A DNA stretch of 64,000 nt from assembly GCF_003991155.1 (NCBI RefSeq), contig NZ_CP031295.1; one strand, written 5' to 3'. Below are positions 7,973-56,393 of this stretch, piece by piece (position 1 is the stretch's first letter; each line of letters starts with the position of its first letter). This DNA comes from Escherichia coli. Its GTDB lineage: Bacteria > Pseudomonadota > Gammaproteobacteria > Enterobacterales > Enterobacteriaceae. The notes under the pieces are model-generated. The model saw only the letters and a list, made by a program, of their open reading frames with translations, had not been told where the DNA came from and ran no database searches. A program made the translations under genes and the position numbers.

Positions 7973-8606
7973 GATGAAGCTGAGTATGAAATCTCTGGCA
8001 GCACTGCTGATGATGCTGAACGGGGCGGTTATGGCGTCAGAAAACGTGAACACTCCTGAAAACCGCCAGTTCCTGAAGCAGCAGGAAAATTTAAGCAGAC
8101 AACTGCGTGAAAACCTGACCATCAGCTGAAAGCCGGGCGGAGAAGCAGGTGCTGGAAACCCCTTCAGCGTTCAGATAACCATTTCTGGATGAGCTGGTTC
8201 GTAAACAGCAGGCTTCGCAGGACGGGAAACCCGGCAGGGTGCTCTGTATTTTGTGTCGTTTTCCATTCCCGAAGAGGGGCTGAAACGAATGCTGGGCGAA
8301 ACCCGGCACTACGGTATACCCGCCACACTGCGGGGCATGGTGAACAATGACCTGAAGACCACCGCTGAAGCCGTGCTGTCCCTGGTGAAAGACGGCGCGA
8401 CTGATGGTGTTCAGATCGACCCGACGCTGTTTTCACAGTACGGCATTCGCAGTGTACCGGCACTGGTGGTGTTCTGCAGTCATGGATACGACATCATCCG
8501 GGGAAACCTGCGGGTCGGCCAGGCGCTGGAGAAAGTGGCCGCCACGGGTGACTGCCGGCAGGTGGCTCATGATTTACTGGCAGGGAAAGGAGATTCCGGG
8601 AAATGA
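7973..8606 (+). pseudogene. trbC: trbC, disrupted by several frameshifts (signal-peptide N-terminus 7973-8129 stops early; TrbC-like C-terminus in another frame 8253-8606)
   Basis: N-terminal MMKLSMKSLAALLMMLNGAVMA ORF ends after 52 codons; recognisable TrbC C-terminal sequence resumes in a different frame; indels sit at homopolymer runs. Confidence 0.6.
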
Positions 8607-10411
8607 AACGTATTTTACCTCTGATACTGGCTCTGGTTGCCGGCATGGCACAGGCTGACAGCAACAGTGATTACCGGGCCGGTTCTGATTTTGCTCACCA
8701 GATCAAAGGGCAGGGAAGCAGCAGTATTCAGGGCTTTAAGCCACAGGAGAGTATCCCCGGCTATAACGCGAATCCGGACGAGACAAAATATTACGGTGGC
8801 GTGACTGCCGGCGGGGATGGCGGCCTGAAAAATGACGGCACCACGGAATGGGCGACCGGTGAAACCGGAAAAACCATTACAGAGTCATTCATGAACAAGC
8901 CGAAAGACATTCTTTCACCGGATGCACCGTTTATCCAGACCGGCAGGGATGTGGTGAACCGGGCTGACAGCATTGTGGGAAACACCGGGCAGCAGTGCAG
9001 TGCGCAGGAGATTAGCAGGAGTGAATACACGAATTACACCTGTGAGCGGGATTTACAGGTGGAGCAGTACTGCACACGAACTGCCCGTATGGAGCTGCAG
9101 GGGAGTACCACATGGGAAACCCGGACGCTGGAGTATGAAATGAGTCAGCTACCTGCACGTGAAGTGAATGGTCAGTATGTTGTCTCCATTACCTCTCCCG
9201 TTACCGGTGAAATTGTCGATGCGCATTACAGCTGGAGTCGTACTTACTTGCAGAAGAGTGTACCTATGACAATTACAGTACTGGGAACCCCACTGAGCTG
9301 GAATGCCAAATACTCAGCAGATGCCTCATTTACACCAGTACAGAAAACACTGACTGCCGGTGTGGCTTTTACGTCATCTCACCCCGTCCGGGTCGGGAAT
9401 ACAAAATTCAAACGTCATACGGCAATGAAGCTGCGTCTGGTTGTCAGGGTAAAAAAAGCCTCGTACACCCCGTATGTTGTCTGGTCTGAAAGCTGCCCGT
9501 TCAGCAAGGAGCAGGGGAAACTGACAAAAACAGAATGTACGGAGGCTGGCGGGAACAGGACGCTGGTGAAAGACGGTCAGTCATACAGCATGTACCAGAG
9601 CTGCTGGGCATACCGGGACACGTATGTCACGCAGTCAGCAGACAAGGGAACCTGTCAGACCTACACCGACAATCCTGCCTGTACCCTGGTGTCACACCAG
9701 TGTGCCTTTTACTCCGAAGAAGGTGCCTGTCTGCATGAATATGCCACGTACTCCTGTGAGTCAAAAACATCCGGGAAAGTGATGGTCTGTGGGGGAGACG
9801 TATTCTGTCTCGATGGCGAATGCGATAAGGCTCAGAGCGGGCAGAGTAATGATTTTGCCGAAGCCGTTTCTCAGCTGGCGGCACTGGCCGCAGCAGGTAA
9901 GGATGTTGCGGCGCTGAACGGGGGGGATGTCCGTGCTTTCACCGGTCAGGCGAAATTTTGTAAGAAGGCTGCAGCCGGATACAGCAACTGCTGTAAGGAC
10001 AGCGGCTGGGGACAGGATATCGGGCTGGCCAAATGCAGCAGTGATGAAAAGGCCCTGGCTAAAGCAAAATCAAACAAACTGACCGTCAGCGTCGGGGAGT
10101 TCTGTTCGAAGAAAGTGCTGGGTGTCTGTCTGGAGAAAAAACGCAGCTACTGTCAGTTTGATTCGAAGCTGGCGCAGATAGTCCAGCAGCAGGGGCGCAA
10201 CGGTCAGTTGCGTATCAGTTTTGGTAGTGCGAAGCATCCTGACTGTCGGGGGATTACGGTTGATGAGCTGCAGAAAATTCAGTTCAACAGACTGGATTTC
10301 ACTAACTTCTACGAAGACCTGATGAATAACCAGAAAATCCCGGACAGTGGCGTTCTGACGCAGAAAGTGAAAGAGCAGATTGCTGACCAGCTGAAACAGG
10401 CAGGACAGTAA
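8603..10411 (+). CDS. traN: TraN mating-pair stabilisation outer-membrane protein
   Basis: 602-aa cysteine-rich secreted protein in F gene order. Confidence 0.85.
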   Translation: MKRILPLILALVAGMAQADSNSDYRAGSDFAHQIKGQGSSSIQGFKPQESIPGYNANPDETKYYGGVTAGGDGGLKNDGTTEWATGETGKTITESFMNKPKDILSPDAPFIQTGRDVVNRADSIVGNTGQQCSAQEISRSEYTNYTCERDLQVEQYCTRTARMELQGSTTWETRTLEYEMSQLPAREVNGQYVVSITSPVTGEIVDAHYSWSRTYLQKSVPMTITVLGTPLSWNAKYSADASFTPVQKTLTAGVAFTSSHPVRVGNTKFKRHTAMKLRLVVRVKKASYTPYVVWSESCPFSKEQGKLTKTECTEAGGNRTLVKDGQSYSMYQSCWAYRDTYVTQSADKGTCQTYTDNPACTLVSHQCAFYSEEGACLHEYATYSCESKTSGKVMVCGGDVFCLDGECDKAQSGQSNDFAEAVSQLAALAAAGKDVAALNGGDVRAFTGQAKFCKKAAAGYSNCCKDSGWGQDIGLAKCSSDEKALAKAKSNKLTVSVGEFCSKKVLGVCLEKKRSYCQFDSKLAQIVQQQGRNGQLRISFGSAKHPDCRGITVDELQKIQFNRLDFTNFYEDLMNNQKIPDSGVLTQKVKEQIADQLKQAGQ

Positions 10412-11446: not shown

Positions 11447-11815
11447 ATGAGTGAAGATTATTTGAAAATGTTTACAGGTGTTGTTCTGTTAATATTTGTC
11501 ATTATTGCCGGTTATTTCTTTTCTGAGCGTAATGACAGGAAAATGTTTCTCCTGAGCTCACTGGTTTTCCTTGTTATTAATATCGCGTGTTTATATGTGC
11601 TTACCGCCAGTCTCTGGTTTCTGTGTGGTGCAATTATGAGTCAGGGCGCAGCACTGGTTGTTTCAATAGTTGCGGCCGCATTACCGGACGTTACGAGCTT
11701 CGACAGGTTCAGAAGAATATTTATCTGTATTGTGTTGTCATCGGTATGGTCCGGAGTGATGTGGTTTTTTATAAGGGGGGCTTATGACAGGCTAAGTCAT
11801 ATAAAACGGTCATAA
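11447..11815 (+). CDS. trbA: TrbA membrane protein
   Basis: 122-aa hydrophobic ORF in F position. Confidence 0.55.
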   Translation: MSEDYLKMFTGVVLLIFVIIAGYFFSERNDRKMFLLSSLVFLVINIACLYVLTASLWFLCGAIMSQGAALVVSIVAAALPDVTSFDRFRRIFICIVLSSVWSGVMWFFIRGAYDRLSHIKRS

Positions 11816-19366: not shown

Positions 19367-21507
19367 ATGAGTTTTAACGCAAAGGATATGACCCAGGGCG
19401 GTCAGATTGCGTCCATGCGTATCCGCATGTTCAGTCAGATCGCCAATATCATACTTTACTGCCTGTTTATTTTTTTCTGGATCCTAGTTGGTCTGGTTTT
19501 ATGGGTAAAAATAAGCTGGCAGACGTTTGTGAATGGCTGCATTTACTGGTGGTGCACCACGCTGGAAGGCATGCGGGATTTAATCAGGTCCCAGCCGGTC
19601 TATGAGATCCAGTATTACGGCAAAACCTTCCGGATGAACGCGGCTCAGGTACTGCATGATAAATATATGATCTGGTGCGGAGAGCAGCTATGGTCCGCAT
19701 TCGTTCTGGCCACAGTTGTGGCACTGGTTATTGCCTGATTACCTTCTTTGTTGTCTCACGGATTCTGGGGCGTCAGGGTAAACAACAGAGCGAAAATGAA
19801 GTCACAGGTGGTCGTCAGCTGACAGACAATCCGAAAGACGTTGCCCGGATGCTGAAAAAGACGGCAAGGACTCCGATATACGGATTGGCGACCTGCCGAT
19901 TATCCGGGATTCCGAAATCAGAACTTCTGTCTGCACGGCACGGTCGGGGCCGGTAAGTCGGAAGTTATCCGTCGTCTGGCCAACTACGCCCGTCAGCGTG
20001 GAGATATGGTGGTGATTTATGACCGTTCAGGGAATTTGTTAAAAGTTACTATGATCCCTCCATCGATAAAATCCTGAATCCGCTGGATGCCCGCTGTGCC
20101 GCACGGGATTTGTGGAAGAGTGCCTGACACAGCCAGATTTTGATAATACCGCAAATACTCTGATCCCGATGGGGACAAAAGAGGACCCGTTCTGGCAGGG
20201 TTCAGGACGTACCATTTTTGCGGAAGCGGCATACCTGATGCGTAATGACCCCAACCGCAGCTACAGCAAACTGGTGGACACACTGCTTTCCATCAAAATT
20301 GAAAAGCTGCGTACCTTCCTGCGTAATTCACCGGCGGCCAACCTGGTGGAAGAGAAAATCGAGAAAACGGCCATATCCATCCGTGCTGTGCTGACCAACT
20401 ACGTGAAAGCCATCCGTTACCTGCAGGGGATTGAGCATAACGGTGAGTCTTTACCATCCGTGACTGGATGCGTGGTGTCCGGAAGATCAGAAAAACGGCT
20501 GGCTGTTTATCTCGTCGAATGCCGACACCCATGCCTCCCTGAAGCCGGTGATCTCCATGTGGCTGTCCATTGCCATTCGTGGTCTGCTGGCAATGGGAGA
20601 AAACCGTAACCGTCGTGTGTGGTTTTCTGTGATGAGCTACCCACGTTACACAAACTGCCGGACTGGTGGAGATCCTGCCGGAAGCCCGTAAGTTCGGTGG
20701 CTGTTATGTGTTTGGTATCCAGTCTATGCCCAGCTGGAAGATATCTACGGTGAAAGCGGCTGCCACGCTGTTTGACGTCATGAACACCCGTGCCTTTTTC
20801 GTTCTCCCAGCCATAAGATTGCAGAGTTCGCTGCCGGTGAGATTGGTGAGAAAGAGCACCTGAAAGCCAGCGAGCAGTATTCCTACGGTGCTGATCCGGT
20901 ACGTGACGGGGTATCGACCGGTAAGGATATGGAGCGTCAGACGCTGGTCAGTTATTCCGACATTCAGTCTCTGCCGGATCTGACCTGTTATGTCACCCTG
21001 CCCGGACCGTATCCGGCAGTAAAACTCTCCCTGAAATATCAGACACGACCGAAGGTCGCTCCGGAGTTTATTCCGCGTGACATCAACCCGGAAATGGAGA
21101 ACCGTCTGAGTGCCGTACTTGCCGCAAGGGAAGCAGAAGGTCGTCAGATGGCCAGCCTCTTCGAACCGGATGTCCCGGAGGTTGTTTCCGGAGAAGACGT
21201 GACTCAGGCTGAACAGCCGCAACAGCCGGTGTCTCCTGCCATCAACGATAAGAAGTCAGATGCAGGTGTGAATGTTCCGGCAGGGGGGATCGAGCAGGAG
21301 CTGAAAATGAAACCGGAAGAAGAGATGGAACAGCAACTGCCACCCGGGATCAGTGAATCCGGTGAAGTGGTGGATATGGCCGTTTATGAGGCATGGCAAC
21401 GGGAGCAGAATCCGGATATCCAGCAGAAGATGCAGCGTCGTGAAGAGGTGAACATCAATGTGCACCGGGAGCGCGGGGAGGATGTTGAGCCGGGAGATGA
21501 TTTCTGA
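19367..21507 (+). pseudogene. traD: traD coupling protein, fragmented into at least 5 frames by small indels
   Basis: TraD N-terminus ([12 protein letters not shown]...), middle and QQP-rich C-terminus (...EPGDDF) are all present but in different frames (ORFs 19367-19738, 19675-19956, 20112-20609, 20666-20863, 20929-21507). Confidence 0.7.
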
Positions 21508-21515
21508 TGAACAGG

Positions 21516-21914
21516 TCAGCTCCAGTCTTCAATTCTCAGACCGTCCACACGTTCAAATTCCCGGGTGTTATTAGTCACAATAATCAGTCCCCGACTGCGG
21601 GCATGACCTGCGATCATTTGATCAAATGGCCCGACAGGGCGTCCCTGACGGGCAAGTTCTGCTCTTATCTGGCCGCTGTGTGTGGCTGCGGCAGCGTCGT
21701 AATCCAGAACATCAATGCGGGAAACAAATCCCTCGATCACAGCGAGATTACGTTCAGGCATCTGGCTTTTTTCTGCACCATATATCAGCTCCATCAGGGT
21801 GACCGAACTGATACACATTCTCCCCTGGTTCAGGTTAAAACGCTCCCTGACGCTGGCGGGTTTGTTCTTTATCGTGAAAATGCAGATGTTGGTATCGAGC
21901 ATAAACTTCAGCAT
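21516..21914 (-). CDS. vapC: VapC PIN-domain toxin
   Basis: 132 aa, N-terminal MLKFMLDTNICIF typical of PIN domains; overlaps upstream antitoxin gene. Confidence 0.8.
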   Translation of the reverse strand: MLKFMLDTNICIFTIKNKPASVRERFNLNQGRMCISSVTLMELIYGAEKSQMPERNLAVIEGFVSRIDVLDYDAAAATHSGQIRAELARQGRPVGPFDQMIAGHARSRGLIIVTNNTREFERVDGLRIEDWS

Positions 21915-22141
21915 CAGAATGACTCCCTTTCCTGCATGCCGGGCTGTTCCCTGTTATCCATAAAATCGGCGCTGACGTTGTGTCCGTCGAACCATTCGTC
22001 CCATGTCTCTCCGGCTGGCGTAATGATTCTGGTTCGTCCGACAGCAATCACTTCAACGCGTTTTACGTTTTCCGGCAATGCAACCGCTTTTGGCAGTCTG
22101 ACCGCCTGGCTGCGGTTGCTGAAAAATACGGTGGTTTCCAT
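21914..22141 (-). CDS. vapB: VapB antitoxin (AbrB/SpoVT-like)
   Basis: 75-aa ORF immediately upstream of and overlapping vapC. Confidence 0.75.
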   Translation of the reverse strand: METTVFFSNRSQAVRLPKAVALPENVKRVEVIAVGRTRIITPAGETWDEWFDGHNVSADFMDNREQPGMQERESF

Positions 22142-22222
22142 TATTTGCCTCCTTATGTGGATATGTCTTGTGTATATCCATTGTGGGATTGATACCGGGA
22201 TATGTCAAAGGGATATACGTTT

Positions 22223-25200
22223 ATGATGAGTATCGCGCAGGTCAGATCGGCCGGAAGTGCCGGTAACTATTATACCGACAAGGATAATTACTATGTGCTG
22301 GGCAGCATGGGAGAACGCTGGGCCGGCAGGGGGGCTGAACAGCTGGGGCTGCAGGGCAGCGTCGATAAGGATGTTTTTACCCGTCTTCTGGAGGGGAAGC
22401 TGCCGGACGGAGCGGATTTAAGCCGCATGCAGGATGGCAGTAATAAGCATCGTCCCGGCTACGACCTGACCTTCTCCGCCCCCAAAAGTGTCTCCGTGAT
22501 GGCCATGTTAGGCGGTGATAAACGTCTTATTGATGCACATAACCAGGCCGTGGATTTTGCTGTCCGTCAGGTGGAGGCGCTGGCTTCCACACGGGTTATG
22601 ACGGACGGACAGTCAGAAACGGTGCTGACCGGTAATCTGGTGATGGCACTGTTTAACCACGACACCAGTCGCGATCAGGAACCACAGTTACACACACATG
22701 CGGTAGTGGCCAATGTCACGCAGCATAACGGCGAGTGGAAGACATTGAGCAGTGACAAAGTGGGGAAAACGGGGTTCATTGAGAATGTGTACGCTAATCA
22801 GATTGCCTTCGGCAGGCTCTACCGGGAAAAACTGAAAGAGCAGGTTGAGGCGCTAGGCTATGAAACGGAAGTGGTTGGTAAGCACGGTATGTGGGAGATG
22901 CCGGGCGTACCGGTGGAGGCCTTCTCCGGACGCTCACAGGCTATCCGGGAGGCCGTCGGGGAAGACGCCTCGCTGAAATCCCGGGATGTGGCGGCACTGG
23001 ATACGCGAAAATCCAAACAGCACGTCGATCCTGAAGTCAGAATGGCTGAATGGATGCAGACGCTGAAGGAAACCGGGTTCGACATCCGGGCGTATCGTGA
23101 CGCGGCGGACCAACGGGCGGAGACCCGCACGCAGACGCCCGGACCCGCTTCACAGGACGGGCCGGATGTGCAGCAGGCGGTGACACAGGCCATTGCCGGA
23201 TTAAGTGAACGCAAAGTGCAGTTTACGTACACGGACGTGCTGGCCAGAACGGTCGGCATACTGCCGCCGGAAAATGGTGTGATTGAACGGGCACGCGCCG
23301 GTATCGATGAGGCCATCAGCCGTGAGCAGCTTATCCCCCTCGATCGTGAGAAGGGGCTGTTCACGTCCGGGATTCATGTGCTCGATGAGCTGTCAGTCCG
23401 GGCACTCAGTCGTGACATCATGAAACAGAACCGGGTGACCGTACATCCGGAGAAAAGTGTCCCCCGGACGGCCGGTTACAGCGATGCGGTCAGTGTTCTG
23501 GCACAGGATCGCCCGTCGCTGGCTATTGTGTCCGGGCAGGGCGGTGCAGCCGGGCAGCGTGAGCGGGTGGCGGAGCTGGTCATGATGGCCCGGGAGCAGG
23601 GGCGGGAGGTGCAGATTATCGCCGCTGACCGTCGCTCGCAGATGAACCTGAAGCAGGATGAACGGCTGTCCGGTGAGCTGATAACCGGACGTCGTCAGCT
23701 GCAGGAGGGCATGGCCTTCACGCCGGGCAATACTGTTATCGTTGACCAGGGCGAAAAACTCTCCCTGAAAGAGACGTTAACCCTGCTGGACGGTGCCGCA
23801 CGTCATAACGTACAGGTCCTGATAACCGACAGCGGGCAGCGAACCGGTACAGGCAGTGCACTGATGGCCATGAAAGATGCCGGGGTGAACACATATCGCT
23901 GGCAGGGGGGAGAACAGCGGCCGGCCACCATCATCAGTGAACCGGACCGTAATGTCCGCTATGCCCGGCTGGCAGGAGATTTTGCTGCCAGCGTGAAAGC
24001 CGGAGAAGAGAGCGTGGCACAGGTCAGCGGGGTACGGGAACAGGCCATACTGACACAGGCCATTCGCAGTGAGCTGAAAACACAGGGCGTGCTCGGACGC
24101 CCGGAGGTAACCATGACCGCCCTGTCGCCGGTCTGGCTGGACAGCCGGAGCCGTTATCTGCGGGATATGTACCGTCCGGGGATGGTGATGGAGCAGTGGA
24201 ACCCGGAGACACGCAGTCATGACCGCTATGTTATCGACCGGGTGACGGCGCAGAGTAACAGCCTGACCCTGCGGGATGCGCAGGATGAAACGCAGGTGGT
24301 GCGTATTTCCTCCCTGGACAGCAGCTGGTCGCTGTTCCGGCCGGAAAAAATGCCGGTGGCAGACGGCGAGCGACTGAGGGTGACAGGGAAAATTCCCGGA
24401 CTCCGCGTCTCCGGCGGTGACCGCCTGCAGGTGGCATCCGTCAGTGAAGATGCGATGACGGTTGTTGTGCCGGGGCGGGCTGAACCGGCCTCCCTGCCTG
24501 TGAGCGATTCACCATTCATGGCACTGAAGCTGGAGAACGGCTGGGTGGAAACGCCCGGGCATTCCGTCAGCGACAGTGCGAAGGTTTTTGCCTCCGTCAC
24601 ACAGATGGCAATGGACAACGCCACCCTGAACGGTCTGGCCCGCAGCGGTCGTGATGTCCGGCTGTATTCCTCACTGGATGAAACCCGTACTGCGGAAAAA
24701 CTTGCCCGCCATCCCTCCTTTACGGTGGTTTCTGAGCAGATAAAGGCGCGTGCCGGTGAGACATTGCTGGAAACCGCTATCAGTCTGCAGAAAACCGGGC
24801 TTCACACGCCGGCACAGCAGGCTATTCATCTGGCGCTTCCTGTGGTGGAAAGTAAAAACCTGGCCTTCAGCATGGTGGACCTGCTGACAGAGGCGAAGTC
24901 GTTTGCTGCAGAAGGAACCAGTTTTACTGAACTGGGAGGGGAAATCAATGCGCAGATAAAACGCGGTGATTTACTGTATGTGGATGTGGCAAAAGGCTAT
25001 GGCACAGGCCTGCTGGTTTCCCGTGCGTCGTATGAGGCAGAAAAGAGCATTCTTCGCCATATTCTCGAAGGTAAGGAGGCGGTCACGCCACTGATGGAGA
25101 GAGTACCTGGCGAACTCATGGAGAAACTGACATCAGGACAGCGTGCCGCTACCCGCATGATACTGGAAACGTCCGACCGTTTCACGGTGGTGCAGGGCTA

Positions 25201-30812: not shown

Positions 30813-31019
30813 ATGAAGTACCTTAACACTACTGATTGTAGCCTCTTCTTTGCTGAGAGGTCAAAGTTTATGACGAAATATGCCCTTATCGGGTTGCTCG
30901 CCGTGTGCGCCACGGTGTTGTGTTTTTCACTGATATTCAGGGAACGGTTATGTGAGCTGAATATTCACAGAGGAAATACAGTGGTGCAGGTAACTCTGGC
31001 CTACGAAGCACGGAAGTAA
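30813..31019 (+). CDS. srnB: Hok/Gef-family type I toxin reading frame (SrnB-like); toxin core 30870-31019 with overlapping leader ORF
   Basis: C-terminal ...LIGLLAVCATVLCFSLIFRERLCELNIHRGNTVVQVTLAYEARK matches Hok-family pattern (TM helix, LCEL, AYE). Confidence 0.7.
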   Translation: MKYLNTTDCSLFFAERSKFMTKYALIGLLAVCATVLCFSLIFRERLCELNIHRGNTVVQVTLAYEARK

Positions 31020-34872: not shown

Positions 34873-35130
34873 ATGCATACCACCCGACTGAAGAGGGTTG
34901 GCGGCTCAGTTATGCTGACCGTCCCACCGGCACTGCTGAATGCGCTGTCTCTGGGCACAGATAATGAAGTTGGCATGGTCATTGATAATGGCCGGCTGAT
35001 TGTTGAGCCGTACAGACGCCCGCAATATTCACTGGCTGAGCTACTGGCACAGTGTGATCCGAATGCTGAAATATCAGCTGAAGAACGAGAATGGCTGGAT
35101 GCACCGGCGACTGGTCAGGAGGAAATCTGA
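34873..35130 (+). CDS. pemI: PemI antitoxin (MazE-like)
   Basis: 85-aa ORF directly upstream of pemK. Confidence 0.8.
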   Translation: MHTTRLKRVGGSVMLTVPPALLNALSLGTDNEVGMVIDNGRLIVEPYRRPQYSLAELLAQCDPNAEISAEEREWLDAPATGQEEI

Positions 35131-35131
35131 C

Positions 35132-35464
35132 ATGGAAAGAGGGGAAATCTGGCTTGTCTCGCTTGATCCTACCGCAGGTCATGAGCAGCAGGGAACGCGG
35201 CCGGTGCTGATTGTCACACCGGCGGCCTTTAATCGCGTGACCCGCCTGCCTGTTGTTGTGCCCGTAACCAGCGGAGGCAATTTTGCCCGCACTGCCGGCT
35301 TTGCGGTGTCGTTGGATGGTGTTGGCATACGTACCACAGGTGTTGTACGTTGCGATCAACCCCGGACAATTGATATGAAAGCACGGGGCGGAAAACGACT
35401 CGAACGGGTTCCGGAGACTATCATGAACGAAGTTCTTGGCCGCCTGTCCACTATTCTGACTTGA
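35132..35464 (+). CDS. pemK: PemK toxin (MazF/Kid endoribonuclease)
   Basis: 110 aa from MERGEIWLVSLDPTAGHEQQGTRPVLIV. Confidence 0.85.
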   Translation: MERGEIWLVSLDPTAGHEQQGTRPVLIVTPAAFNRVTRLPVVVPVTSGGNFARTAGFAVSLDGVGIRTTGVVRCDQPRTIDMKARGGKRLERVPETIMNEVLGRLSTILT

Positions 35465-55749: not shown

Positions 55750-56166
55750 TTACTTCACCCAGTCTTCCAGCACCAGGTCAGGCACTCGCTCAAATTCTCT
55801 TGTATTATTCGTTACCAGTATCGCCCCGGCGGCGATGGCGTGCCCGGCAATCGCCGTGTCGTTCGGGCCGATCGGCGTCCCGGCCAGCCGCAGTGCCACT
55901 TTAATCTTCGTGGTGGCGTCTACTGCGGCGCGATCCCAGGGCAGGATGGCATCGAGGCGGGCGCAGAATTCATCGACCAGTTGGACGTGACGTGGTGAGG
56001 CCTTTGGGCCGGTAGCCCCGAAGCGCATTTCAGAGTAGGTGATGGCCGAGACCACTATACGGTGGCCGCGTAGCACCGCCTGCTCCAGACGCTTCAGGAC
56101 GGCTTCTGGCTGTTCACGCATGATGAACGAGCAGATACAGGTATCAAGCATATAAGTCTTGTTCAC
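55750..56166 (-). CDS. vapC: VapC/VagD PIN-domain toxin
   Basis: 138 aa MNKTYMLDTCICSFIMREQ...; overlaps antitoxin gene. Confidence 0.85.
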   Translation of the reverse strand: MNKTYMLDTCICSFIMREQPEAVLKRLEQAVLRGHRIVVSAITYSEMRFGATGPKASPRHVQLVDEFCARLDAILPWDRAAVDATTKIKVALRLAGTPIGPNDTAIAGHAIAAGAILVTNNTREFERVPDLVLEDWVK

Positions 56167-56393
56167 AGGTTAAATCGCCCTTCGTCGCTGACAACATCCT
56201 CGCGCTCCGCCATAAAATCTGGATCGGCTTTTTCGTACTCTAGGAATGATCCCCAGGTTGGCCGGACGGGGCGCAGGATGATGCTGTCCCCTTCCCGGAC
56301 GATCTCGAGCTCGCTCACCCCCTCAAAATCCAGATCACGAGGCAGACGGATGGCGCGGTTGTTGCCATTTTTGAATATCGATACGGTTCTCAT
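56163..56393 (-). CDS. vapB: VapB/VagC antitoxin
   Basis: 76-aa ORF upstream of PIN toxin with 4-nt overlap. Confidence 0.8.
   Translation of the reverse strand: MRTVSIFKNGNNRAIRLPRDLDFEGVSELEIVREGDSIILRPVRPTWGSFLEYEKADPDFMAEREDVVSDEGRFNL

Follow-up and report, generated by a model that had tools for sequence, protein, structure and literature searches.

The closest described relatives of the gene pair analysed here are the vapBC operons of the F plasmid, of Shigella pINV and of the Salmonella Typhimurium plasmid pSLT. Structures are available for the S. sonnei VapBC hetero-octamer (6SD6; PMC8923223) and for VapBC of the F plasmid (9H6A-D series; PMC11796401). VapC cleaves tRNA(fMet) and kills, and the D7A substitution abolishes this; D7, E42, D98 and E119 have been named as its active site (PMC8923223). 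VapB, which neutralises VapC, is a substrate of Lon and is protected while the complex is promoter-bound (PMC11796401). The locus stabilises pINV and test plasmids (PMC8923223, PMC11796401). vapBC2, "encoded within the trbH gene" of pSLT, stabilised that plasmid 5.5-fold (PMC5065971). Earlier publications already cover the gene pair and its position in F-like plasmids, the trbH overlap, and the structure, target and plasmid-maintenance role.

We analysed a 64,000-nt stretch of Escherichia coli contig NZ_CP031295.1, referred to below as the window. It carries a vapBC pair at positions 21516-22141. We conclude with high confidence that this is an F-plasmid-type vapBC type II toxin-antitoxin operon (alias mvpAT; vapBC2 in pSLT) of the enteric tRNA(fMet)-specific VapC subfamily, at its usual traD/traI place. 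For annotation, the region can be regarded as settled as a standard F-type vapBC addiction module.

The vapBC gene pair and its described relatives

The genes, their junctions with the transfer operon and the frame antisense to them are as follows.

21516..21914, minus strand: vapC, 132 aa, ATG start, from the ORF list
21914..22141, minus strand: vapB, 75 aa, ATG start, from the ORF list
22148-22152, minus strand: putative vapB Shine-Dalgarno sequence GGAGG, 6 nt 5' of the vapB ATG
21505..21510, plus strand: left junction TGATGA, comprising the traD stop and an overlapping ATG
22223..22229, plus strand: right junction ATGATGA, where the trbH-frame stop overlaps the traI start (MMSIAQ...)
21507..22226, plus strand: trbH frame, 239 codons, antisense to vapBC

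Both vapB and vapC are intact ORFs. vapB lies directly 5' of vapC on the same strand, and the vapB stop and vapC start share one base (TGATG, minus strand). The traD stop occupies 21505-21507 and traI starts at 22223, both on the plus strand, the latter position following the annotation of record NZ_CP022166 (100% identical). This leaves a traD-traI gap of 715 nt in which vapBC lies antisense to the tra operon and convergent with its transcription, with an 81-nt spacer between vapB and traI. The earlier note had described a PIN toxin and its antitoxin at these positions, transcribed against the tra operon in the short gap between the coupling protein and relaxase genes. Our analysis bears this out in each respect: the ORFs, their matches to PF01850, PRK13725 and NF040493, the opposite strands of vapBC and traD/traI, and the length of the gap.

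Family matches of both proteins were far above chance level. VapC matched the Pfam PIN domain PF01850 (E=1.9e-21) and NCBIfam PRK13725, "tRNA(fMet)-specific endonuclease VapC", at 289.1 bits against a cut-off of 143 (E=3.4e-87). VapB matched NCBIfam NF040493 at 110.6 bits (cut-off 60). Its match to Pfam MazE_antitoxin PF04014 over residues 6-48 (24.4 bits) fell 0.3 bits short of the gathering score of 24.7. The VapB N-terminus is an AbrB/SpoVT-type DNA-binding domain. Among solved structures, 129 of 132 VapC residues are identical to 6SD6 chain C and 73 of 75 VapB residues to 6SD6 chain A; further close structures are 3TND from S. flexneri and the 9H6A-9H6D series. The window VapC has all four active-site acids (D7, E42, D98, E119), which are invariant across the alignment. 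All sequence-level hallmarks of the enteric tRNA(fMet)-specific VapBC family were found.

Comparison with the F plasmid shows the same genes, lengths, one-base overlap, site, orientation, junction sequences and 81-nt spacer to traI. At the DNA level the two genes are 96% identical to those of F, and the promoter region agrees at 80 of 81 bases. The proteins differ from those of F by 4 aa in VapC and 3 aa in VapB, the latter including residue 7. Shigella pINV MvpAT/VapBC (3TND, 6SD6) has the same promoter and operators, with VapC 97-98% and VapB 96-97% identical. The pINV toxin has been shown by experiment to be a tRNA(fMet) endonuclease that stabilises its plasmid by killing plasmid-free cells. 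On pINV, 160 nt of the traD 3' end and a remnant of the traI 5' end still adjoin the locus; the pINV transfer operon is defunct, while that of the window is largely intact. VapBC2 of pSLT occupies the same traD/traI site with the same junction design. It is more distant, at ~87-88% DNA identity, with 7 aa differences in VapC and 6 aa in VapB.

Predicted regulation, toxin alleles and plasmid maintenance

The region 5' of vapB contains a predicted promoter and two operator-like repeats.

22180..22208, minus strand: predicted sigma-70 promoter of vapBC; -35 TTGACA at 22208-22203, 17-nt spacer, -10 CACAAT at 22185-22180
22158..22180, no strand: operator-like inverted repeat 1, TGGATAT-N9-ATATCCA, with 7-nt arms that are 100% complementary
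22198..22218, no strand: operator-like repeat 2, GGATAT-N9-ATATAC, spanning the -35 hexamer

The predicted promoter agrees with the consensus at 10 of 12 positions. Repeat 1 spans the -10 hexamer and the expected transcription start. Repeat 2 is a direct-repeat copy of repeat 1 at a distance of 39 bp (22159-22182 and 22198-22221). The TGTCAA (-35) motif is kept in 13/13 related loci, copies in other contexts included, and both operator-like repeats are likewise kept across these 13. The CCTCC motif of the vapB Shine-Dalgarno sequence is kept in most related loci. In orthologous systems the VapB4C4 complex binds two operator sites (PMC11796401). These elements predict an autoregulated vapBC promoter with operators for VapB4C4. 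A consensus scan gave no tra-strand promoter for traI within the cassette; minus-strand terminator-like matches 3' of vapC were weak in the same scan.

A mode of action can be proposed from these elements and the characterised orthologues. vapB and vapC would be co-transcribed from the sigma-70 promoter predicted just 5' of vapB. VapB would bind and block VapC in a VapB4C4 complex, as shown for 97-98% identical proteins. Sitting on the two inverted-repeat operators, this complex would repress the overlapping promoter, as shown for orthologues whose operator sequences are matched here. If the plasmid were lost, Lon protease would remove the unstable VapB. Freed VapC would then cut the anticodon loop of initiator tRNA(fMet) and halt translation initiation, and the plasmid-free cell would arrest or die, as described for the Shigella and Salmonella orthologues. 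By this analogy the window module is presumably expressed, represses itself, and arrests or kills plasmid-free cells.

The window carries the R32 allele of VapC (S. sonnei type) together with A58 in VapB, as in S. sonnei; S. flexneri has K32 and T58. In one study in S. sonnei, a test plasmid was kept less stably with R32 VapC than with K32 VapC, yet the two toxins were equal in toxicity and in tRNA(fMet) cleavage (PMC8923223). Residue 7 of the window VapB is phenylalanine (F7), against leucine (L7) in the F plasmid, pINV and pSLT; the L7P change in F vapB is an antibiotic-tolerance mutation (PMC11796401). R32 in VapC and F7 in VapB may tune the strength of the module.

The poorer stabilisation by R32 VapC in that assay, and an adjoining traD that looks broken in the window sequence, could be taken to mean that the module is present but inert here, with a weakened toxin allele or in a decaying locus. 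We regard this as very unlikely. The R32 toxin was undiminished in toxicity and cleavage in the same study, neither ORF is interrupted, no catalytic residue is lost, and the exact DNA is common to hundreds of plasmids. The traD defects, moreover, resemble sequencing errors. Deletion of 13 bases (12 gaps) within 19731-20799 disrupts the traD frame in the window, and because of these deletions "traD" denotes the gene by homology and not an intact ORF. A cluster of one-base deletions also occurs in trbC at 8109-8229. The trbC and traD deletion clusters occur in no other record, and are probably sequencing errors. We considered traD as a decaying pseudogene and rejected this: all 13 deletions, mostly contractions of short homopolymers, are unshared, and the much longer traI is intact.

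The standard addiction module therefore remains our reading of vapBC, as given at the outset, and it does not stand alone. The other modules located in the window are listed below.

34873-35130: pemI
35132-35464: pemK, PF02452 at 1.8e-29
30813-31019: Hok/Gef SrnB-type toxin, PF01848
55750-56166, minus strand: second vapC
56163-56393, minus strand: second vapB

PemI and PemK are 100% identical to the PemI and PemK sequences used for comparison. The earlier note had counted four addiction modules, and the pemIK, srnB-type and second vapBC modules are each confirmed beside the first vapBC. These four are the modules named beforehand, and are a lower bound for the window. The second vapBC, of a type common on Klebsiella plasmids, likewise encodes a PIN toxin and an AbrB-type antitoxin in the same gene order, and the four active-site acids align. 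It differs in being only 41-42% (VapC) and 30% (VapB) identical to the first pair, and its VapC scores 104.6 against the tRNA(fMet)-specific subfamily model, under the cut-off of 143. It also lies outside the tra operon, and its antisense frame has stop codons.

Judged by its orthologues, the first vapBC is one of at least four addiction modules keeping this IncF resistance plasmid in its host. Its own contribution may be small or masked with three other modules present. Such stabilising systems help explain the persistence of IncF plasmids without antibiotic selection.

Placement between traD and traI

A 1101-nt junction query matched 4208 PLSDB records, and 1164 of these (28%) carried the whole cassette with both flanks. 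The cassette alone was found whole in 1165 PLSDB records. Among complete E. coli genomes, the junction was matched in 2812 of 5426, and 757 of these 2812 carried the cassette. F has the same pair at the same traD/traI site (NC_002483 91966-92591). In R100-type plasmids the site is empty, with traD stop and traI start sharing bases within TGATGATGA or a close variant; the left junction of the window, TGATGA, agrees with this sequence. Occupied sites have the form TGATGA, 713 nt, TGATGA. Empty sites may be either ancestral or secondary deletions; a simple deletion between the two TGATGA copies would not yield TGATGATGA.

The pair had been described beforehand as inserted at this place. It does lie in the traD/traI gap, but the placement is not peculiar to this plasmid, being shared with F and 28% of the junction-matching PLSDB records. 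That sharing lowers the significance of the finding, and the placement itself is ordinary. The earlier note had itself proposed a comparison with related plasmids and held that universal placement would reduce the significance of the locus. The placement proved widespread, with that effect, but not universal, as the R100-type site is empty.

Divergence of the cassette was compared with that of its flanks. Identities to F were 96.5% for vapC, 96.1% for vapB and 95.6% for traI; the corresponding values for a pSLT-type plasmid were 88.2%, 86.8% and 83.8%. Pantoea plasmids, an Enterobacter MAG and a plasmid of Enterobacter huaxiensis share the arrangement at ~73% nt identity. Across the F-type, pSLT-type, Enterobacter and Pantoea plasmids, divergence of the cassette parallels that of traD and traI. 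Almost all plasmid copies of the lineage lie at the traD/traI junction or a remnant of it. A distant-mode search of PLSDB with the Pantoea junction found no fifth junction-embedded lineage. Close relatives outside tra regions were seen on an E. coli chromosome and on a 152-kb E. coli contig, with VapC 90-91% identical.

A recent, plasmid-specific gain through a mobile cassette landing in the tra operon would fit a polymorphic site, with the cassette absent from ~72% of matching plasmids, and the short TGA/TGATGA repeat at the junctions. Such an event is nevertheless highly improbable. At least 399 PLSDB records are at least 99% identical over the cassette and both flanks, and the pair stands at the same site in F. 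Divergence parallel to that of traD and traI, and recurrence of the site and junction design in Enterobacter and Pantoea plasmids at ~73% nt identity, also argue against it. Furthermore, almost no plasmid copy of the lineage is found at other places, and neither a transposase nor inverted terminal repeats lie beside the cassette. On these comparisons, the locus is an old, inherited, polymorphic resident of F-like transfer regions and not a recent insertion.

In a further reading, the locus mainly modulates conjugation, beside or instead of addiction. Convergent transcription, together with VapBC bound 15-65 bp 5' of the traI start, would hold back read-through past traD into traI/traX; relaxase supply would thereby be tied to the state of the toxin-antitoxin pair. 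In favour of this, vapBC is convergent with the tra operon, 5-25 bp separate the traI ATG from the -35 hexamer and second operator, which cover the likely ribosome-binding site of traI, and the arrangement is kept in four diverged lineages. However, plasmids with an empty site are likewise classed as conjugative, and the same cassette stabilises pINV, where only a remnant of the tra operon is left. Maneewannakul and Ippen-Ihler are also said to have found in 1993 that F trbH insertion mutants still transferred, which counts against this reading. We consider a main role in conjugation control unlikely, and retain plasmid maintenance as the probable function of the locus.

The trbH frame antisense to vapBC

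The plus-strand frame opposite vapBC runs from one transfer gene to the next. It begins on an ATG that shares bases with the traD stop (TGATG) and ends on a TGA that shares bases with the traI ATG (ATGA). In the pSLT and Shigella literature, vapBC is put within trbH (as in PMC5065971) or an antisense transcript is given this name. The frame was open in 9/9 junction-embedded loci, at 239 or 250 codons.

On one alternative reading, trbH (239 aa) is a real transfer-protein gene, as in the classical F map, with vapBC as its by-product. In favour are the length of the ORF, its openness in each junction-embedded copy that we examined, its place among the tra genes of older maps and of PMC5102898, and the naming of a TrbH protein in some records. 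The pattern of substitution speaks for the other strand. A pSLT-type plasmid differs from the window at 99 nt here, which alters 62 of 239 residues in TrbH but only 7 of 132 in VapC and 6 of 75 in VapB. Selection acts on the minus-strand frames. TrbH gave no Pfam family match. Structures have been solved for VapB and VapC, and their activities demonstrated. Automated annotation calls TrbH mainly at loci where assembly errors frameshift vapBC. A homologue search with the TrbH protein returned 11 clusters only. Two of these, L096 and L097, were dismissed as evidence of selection, their source assemblies being riddled with frameshifts. TrbH is not a conserved protein, and a genuine transfer-protein gene with vapBC as by-product is scarcely credible.

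A different explanation for the open frame is that selection keeps it free of stops, so that ribosomes can pass from traD over the antisense cassette to traI. We put this forward tentatively, at somewhat less than an even chance. Ribosomes ending traD would restart at the overlapping ATG (TGATG or TAATG), translate 239-250 meaningless codons through antisense vapBC, and terminate on the stop that overlaps the traI ATG (ATGA or TGATG). Such a bridge would restore the traD-traI coupling of empty sites, and would shield ~715 nt of C-rich mRNA from Rho-dependent polarity. The C/G ratio of the tra-strand RNA is 1.10 across the cassette, compared with 0.76-0.83 in the flanking tra genes. With C in excess of G, the stretch would be a plausible Rho target if left untranslated.

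Several observations on geometry and stop codons are consistent with this idea. The overlaps of start and stop are kept in 4/4 diverged lineages despite differing junctions (TGATG/TAATG at the start; ATGA/TGATG at the stop). The vapB-traI spacer is 81 or 117 nt between lineages, a difference of 36 nt or 12 whole codons. Single-base changes are expected to create stops in 2.9-3.6% of cases. On a neighbour-joining tree, the junction-embedded branches accumulated ~306 substitutions and no stop gains, against ~212 substitutions and 7 stop gains on branches to non-embedded relatives (binomial p ~0.002); this comparison covers four embedded lineages, and all seven stop gains come from two clades. 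The non-embedded rate of 0.033 per substitution equals the mutational expectation (0.029-0.036).

Copies elsewhere follow the same trend. A genome-wide scan gave 80 VapC homologues at 70-91% identity, 79 of them off the traD-traI junction and two with unreliable coordinates. The frame was open in 4 of ~77 homologues in unrelated contexts, with a median of 3 stops. In four Salmonella plasmids the cassette has relocated behind traX with a short traD 3' remnant retained, and stops are present in three of the four.

Resampling of codons gave a more cautious picture. When vapBC was recoded synonymously with tra-gene codon usage, the tra-strand frame stayed open in 12.8% of cases, so the openness of any single sequence is unremarkable. 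Codon-usage-aware resampling of the differing codons left the frame open with probabilities of 0.73 for F, 0.57 for the pSLT type and 0.24-0.26 for the Enterobacter types. Under uniform codon choice these values dropped to 0.42, 0.19 and 0.01-0.02, respectively. The codon-usage-aware resampling alone is not significant, and for this reason the bridge idea rests on the comparison with non-embedded copies.

The proposal of a bridging frame was not found in the literature searched, which excluded older subscription papers on F. If true, it would account for a "gene of unknown function" that has stood on the F map for 30 years. It would also show how an operon may accommodate an opposite-strand gene pair placed between two genes whose translation is coupled.

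vapBC away from the traD–traI junction

Copies of the window vapBC lineage were found behind traX on four Salmonella plasmids, where they adjoin a phospholipase-D gene and repA. Two further relatives were located in E. coli.
L089, Salmonella plasmid CP075145, locus positions 974-1599: vapBC
L091, Salmonella plasmid NC_019342, locus positions 974-1599: vapBC
L092, Salmonella plasmid NC_019125, locus positions 974-1599: vapBC
L093, Salmonella plasmid CP074602, locus positions 974-1599: vapBC
L009, E. coli E69 chromosome CP089930, 3215498-3220893: vapBC relative
L010, a 152-kb E. coli contig: vapBC relative
Next to vapC, both L089 and L091 have a stretch resembling the final ~30 nt of traD, suggesting that the Salmonella cassette was relocated from the traD–traI junction. 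The former trbH frame, antisense to vapBC, contains stop codons in three of the four Salmonella copies. The VapC proteins of the two E. coli relatives are 90-91% identical to that of the window, and neither traD nor traI was present within 2.5 kb of vapBC at either locus. Their antisense frames are interrupted by four stops (L009) and two stops (L010).

Control region and alleles of the tra-linked vapBC

Three short features belong to the window pair.
22203-22222: vapBC -35 box and second operator over the traI ribosome-binding site (predicted from sequence)
22121-22123: VapB codon 7 (F7)
21819-21821: VapC codon 32 (R32)
The traI ATG at 22223 is preceded, at a distance of 9 nt, by its likely ribosome-binding site, AAAGGGA. 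That site is overlain by the predicted vapBC -35 box and second operator-like site, and the vapBC control region and relaxase translation start would therefore share the same 25 bp. VapB residue 7 is phenylalanine in the window, whereas the F, pINV and pSLT plasmids encode leucine. In F vapB, L7P is a reported antibiotic-tolerance mutation that also increases plasmid retention (PMC11796401). VapC R32 is the S. sonnei-type allele, associated with weaker plasmid retention (PMC8923223). The F7/R32 pair is common to hundreds of plasmids.

A second vapBC

Another vapBC is encoded elsewhere in the window.
55750-56393 (-): second vapBC
Its VapC shares 41% identity with the first and scored 104.6, below the cut-off of 143 for the tRNA(fMet)-specific subfamily, so it should not be taken for granted that the two toxins act on the same RNA. 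Klebsiella plasmids very commonly carry relatives at 40-45% identity.

Frame disruption and the TrbH annotation

Window traD is split across three frames. Compared with the otherwise 99.5%-identical NZ_CP022166, traD (19731-20799) has 13 fewer bases, spread over 12 gaps of which a single one spans two bases; the trbC region (8109-8229) lacks six. One base is also absent at 9919 and one added at 11775. Most of the window deletions contract short homopolymers, and no PLSDB or E. coli record carried the same ones (best match 98.0%). These deletions are probably sequencing or assembly errors rather than gene decay. In two public assemblies, L096 (GCA_046507445.1) and L097 (GCA_046507405.1), traD and traI are broken up into numerous small ORFs, a pattern indicative of long-read errors left uncorrected. 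Gene calling in both gave 'TrbH' in place of VapBC, showing a route by which this antisense ORF enters protein databases.
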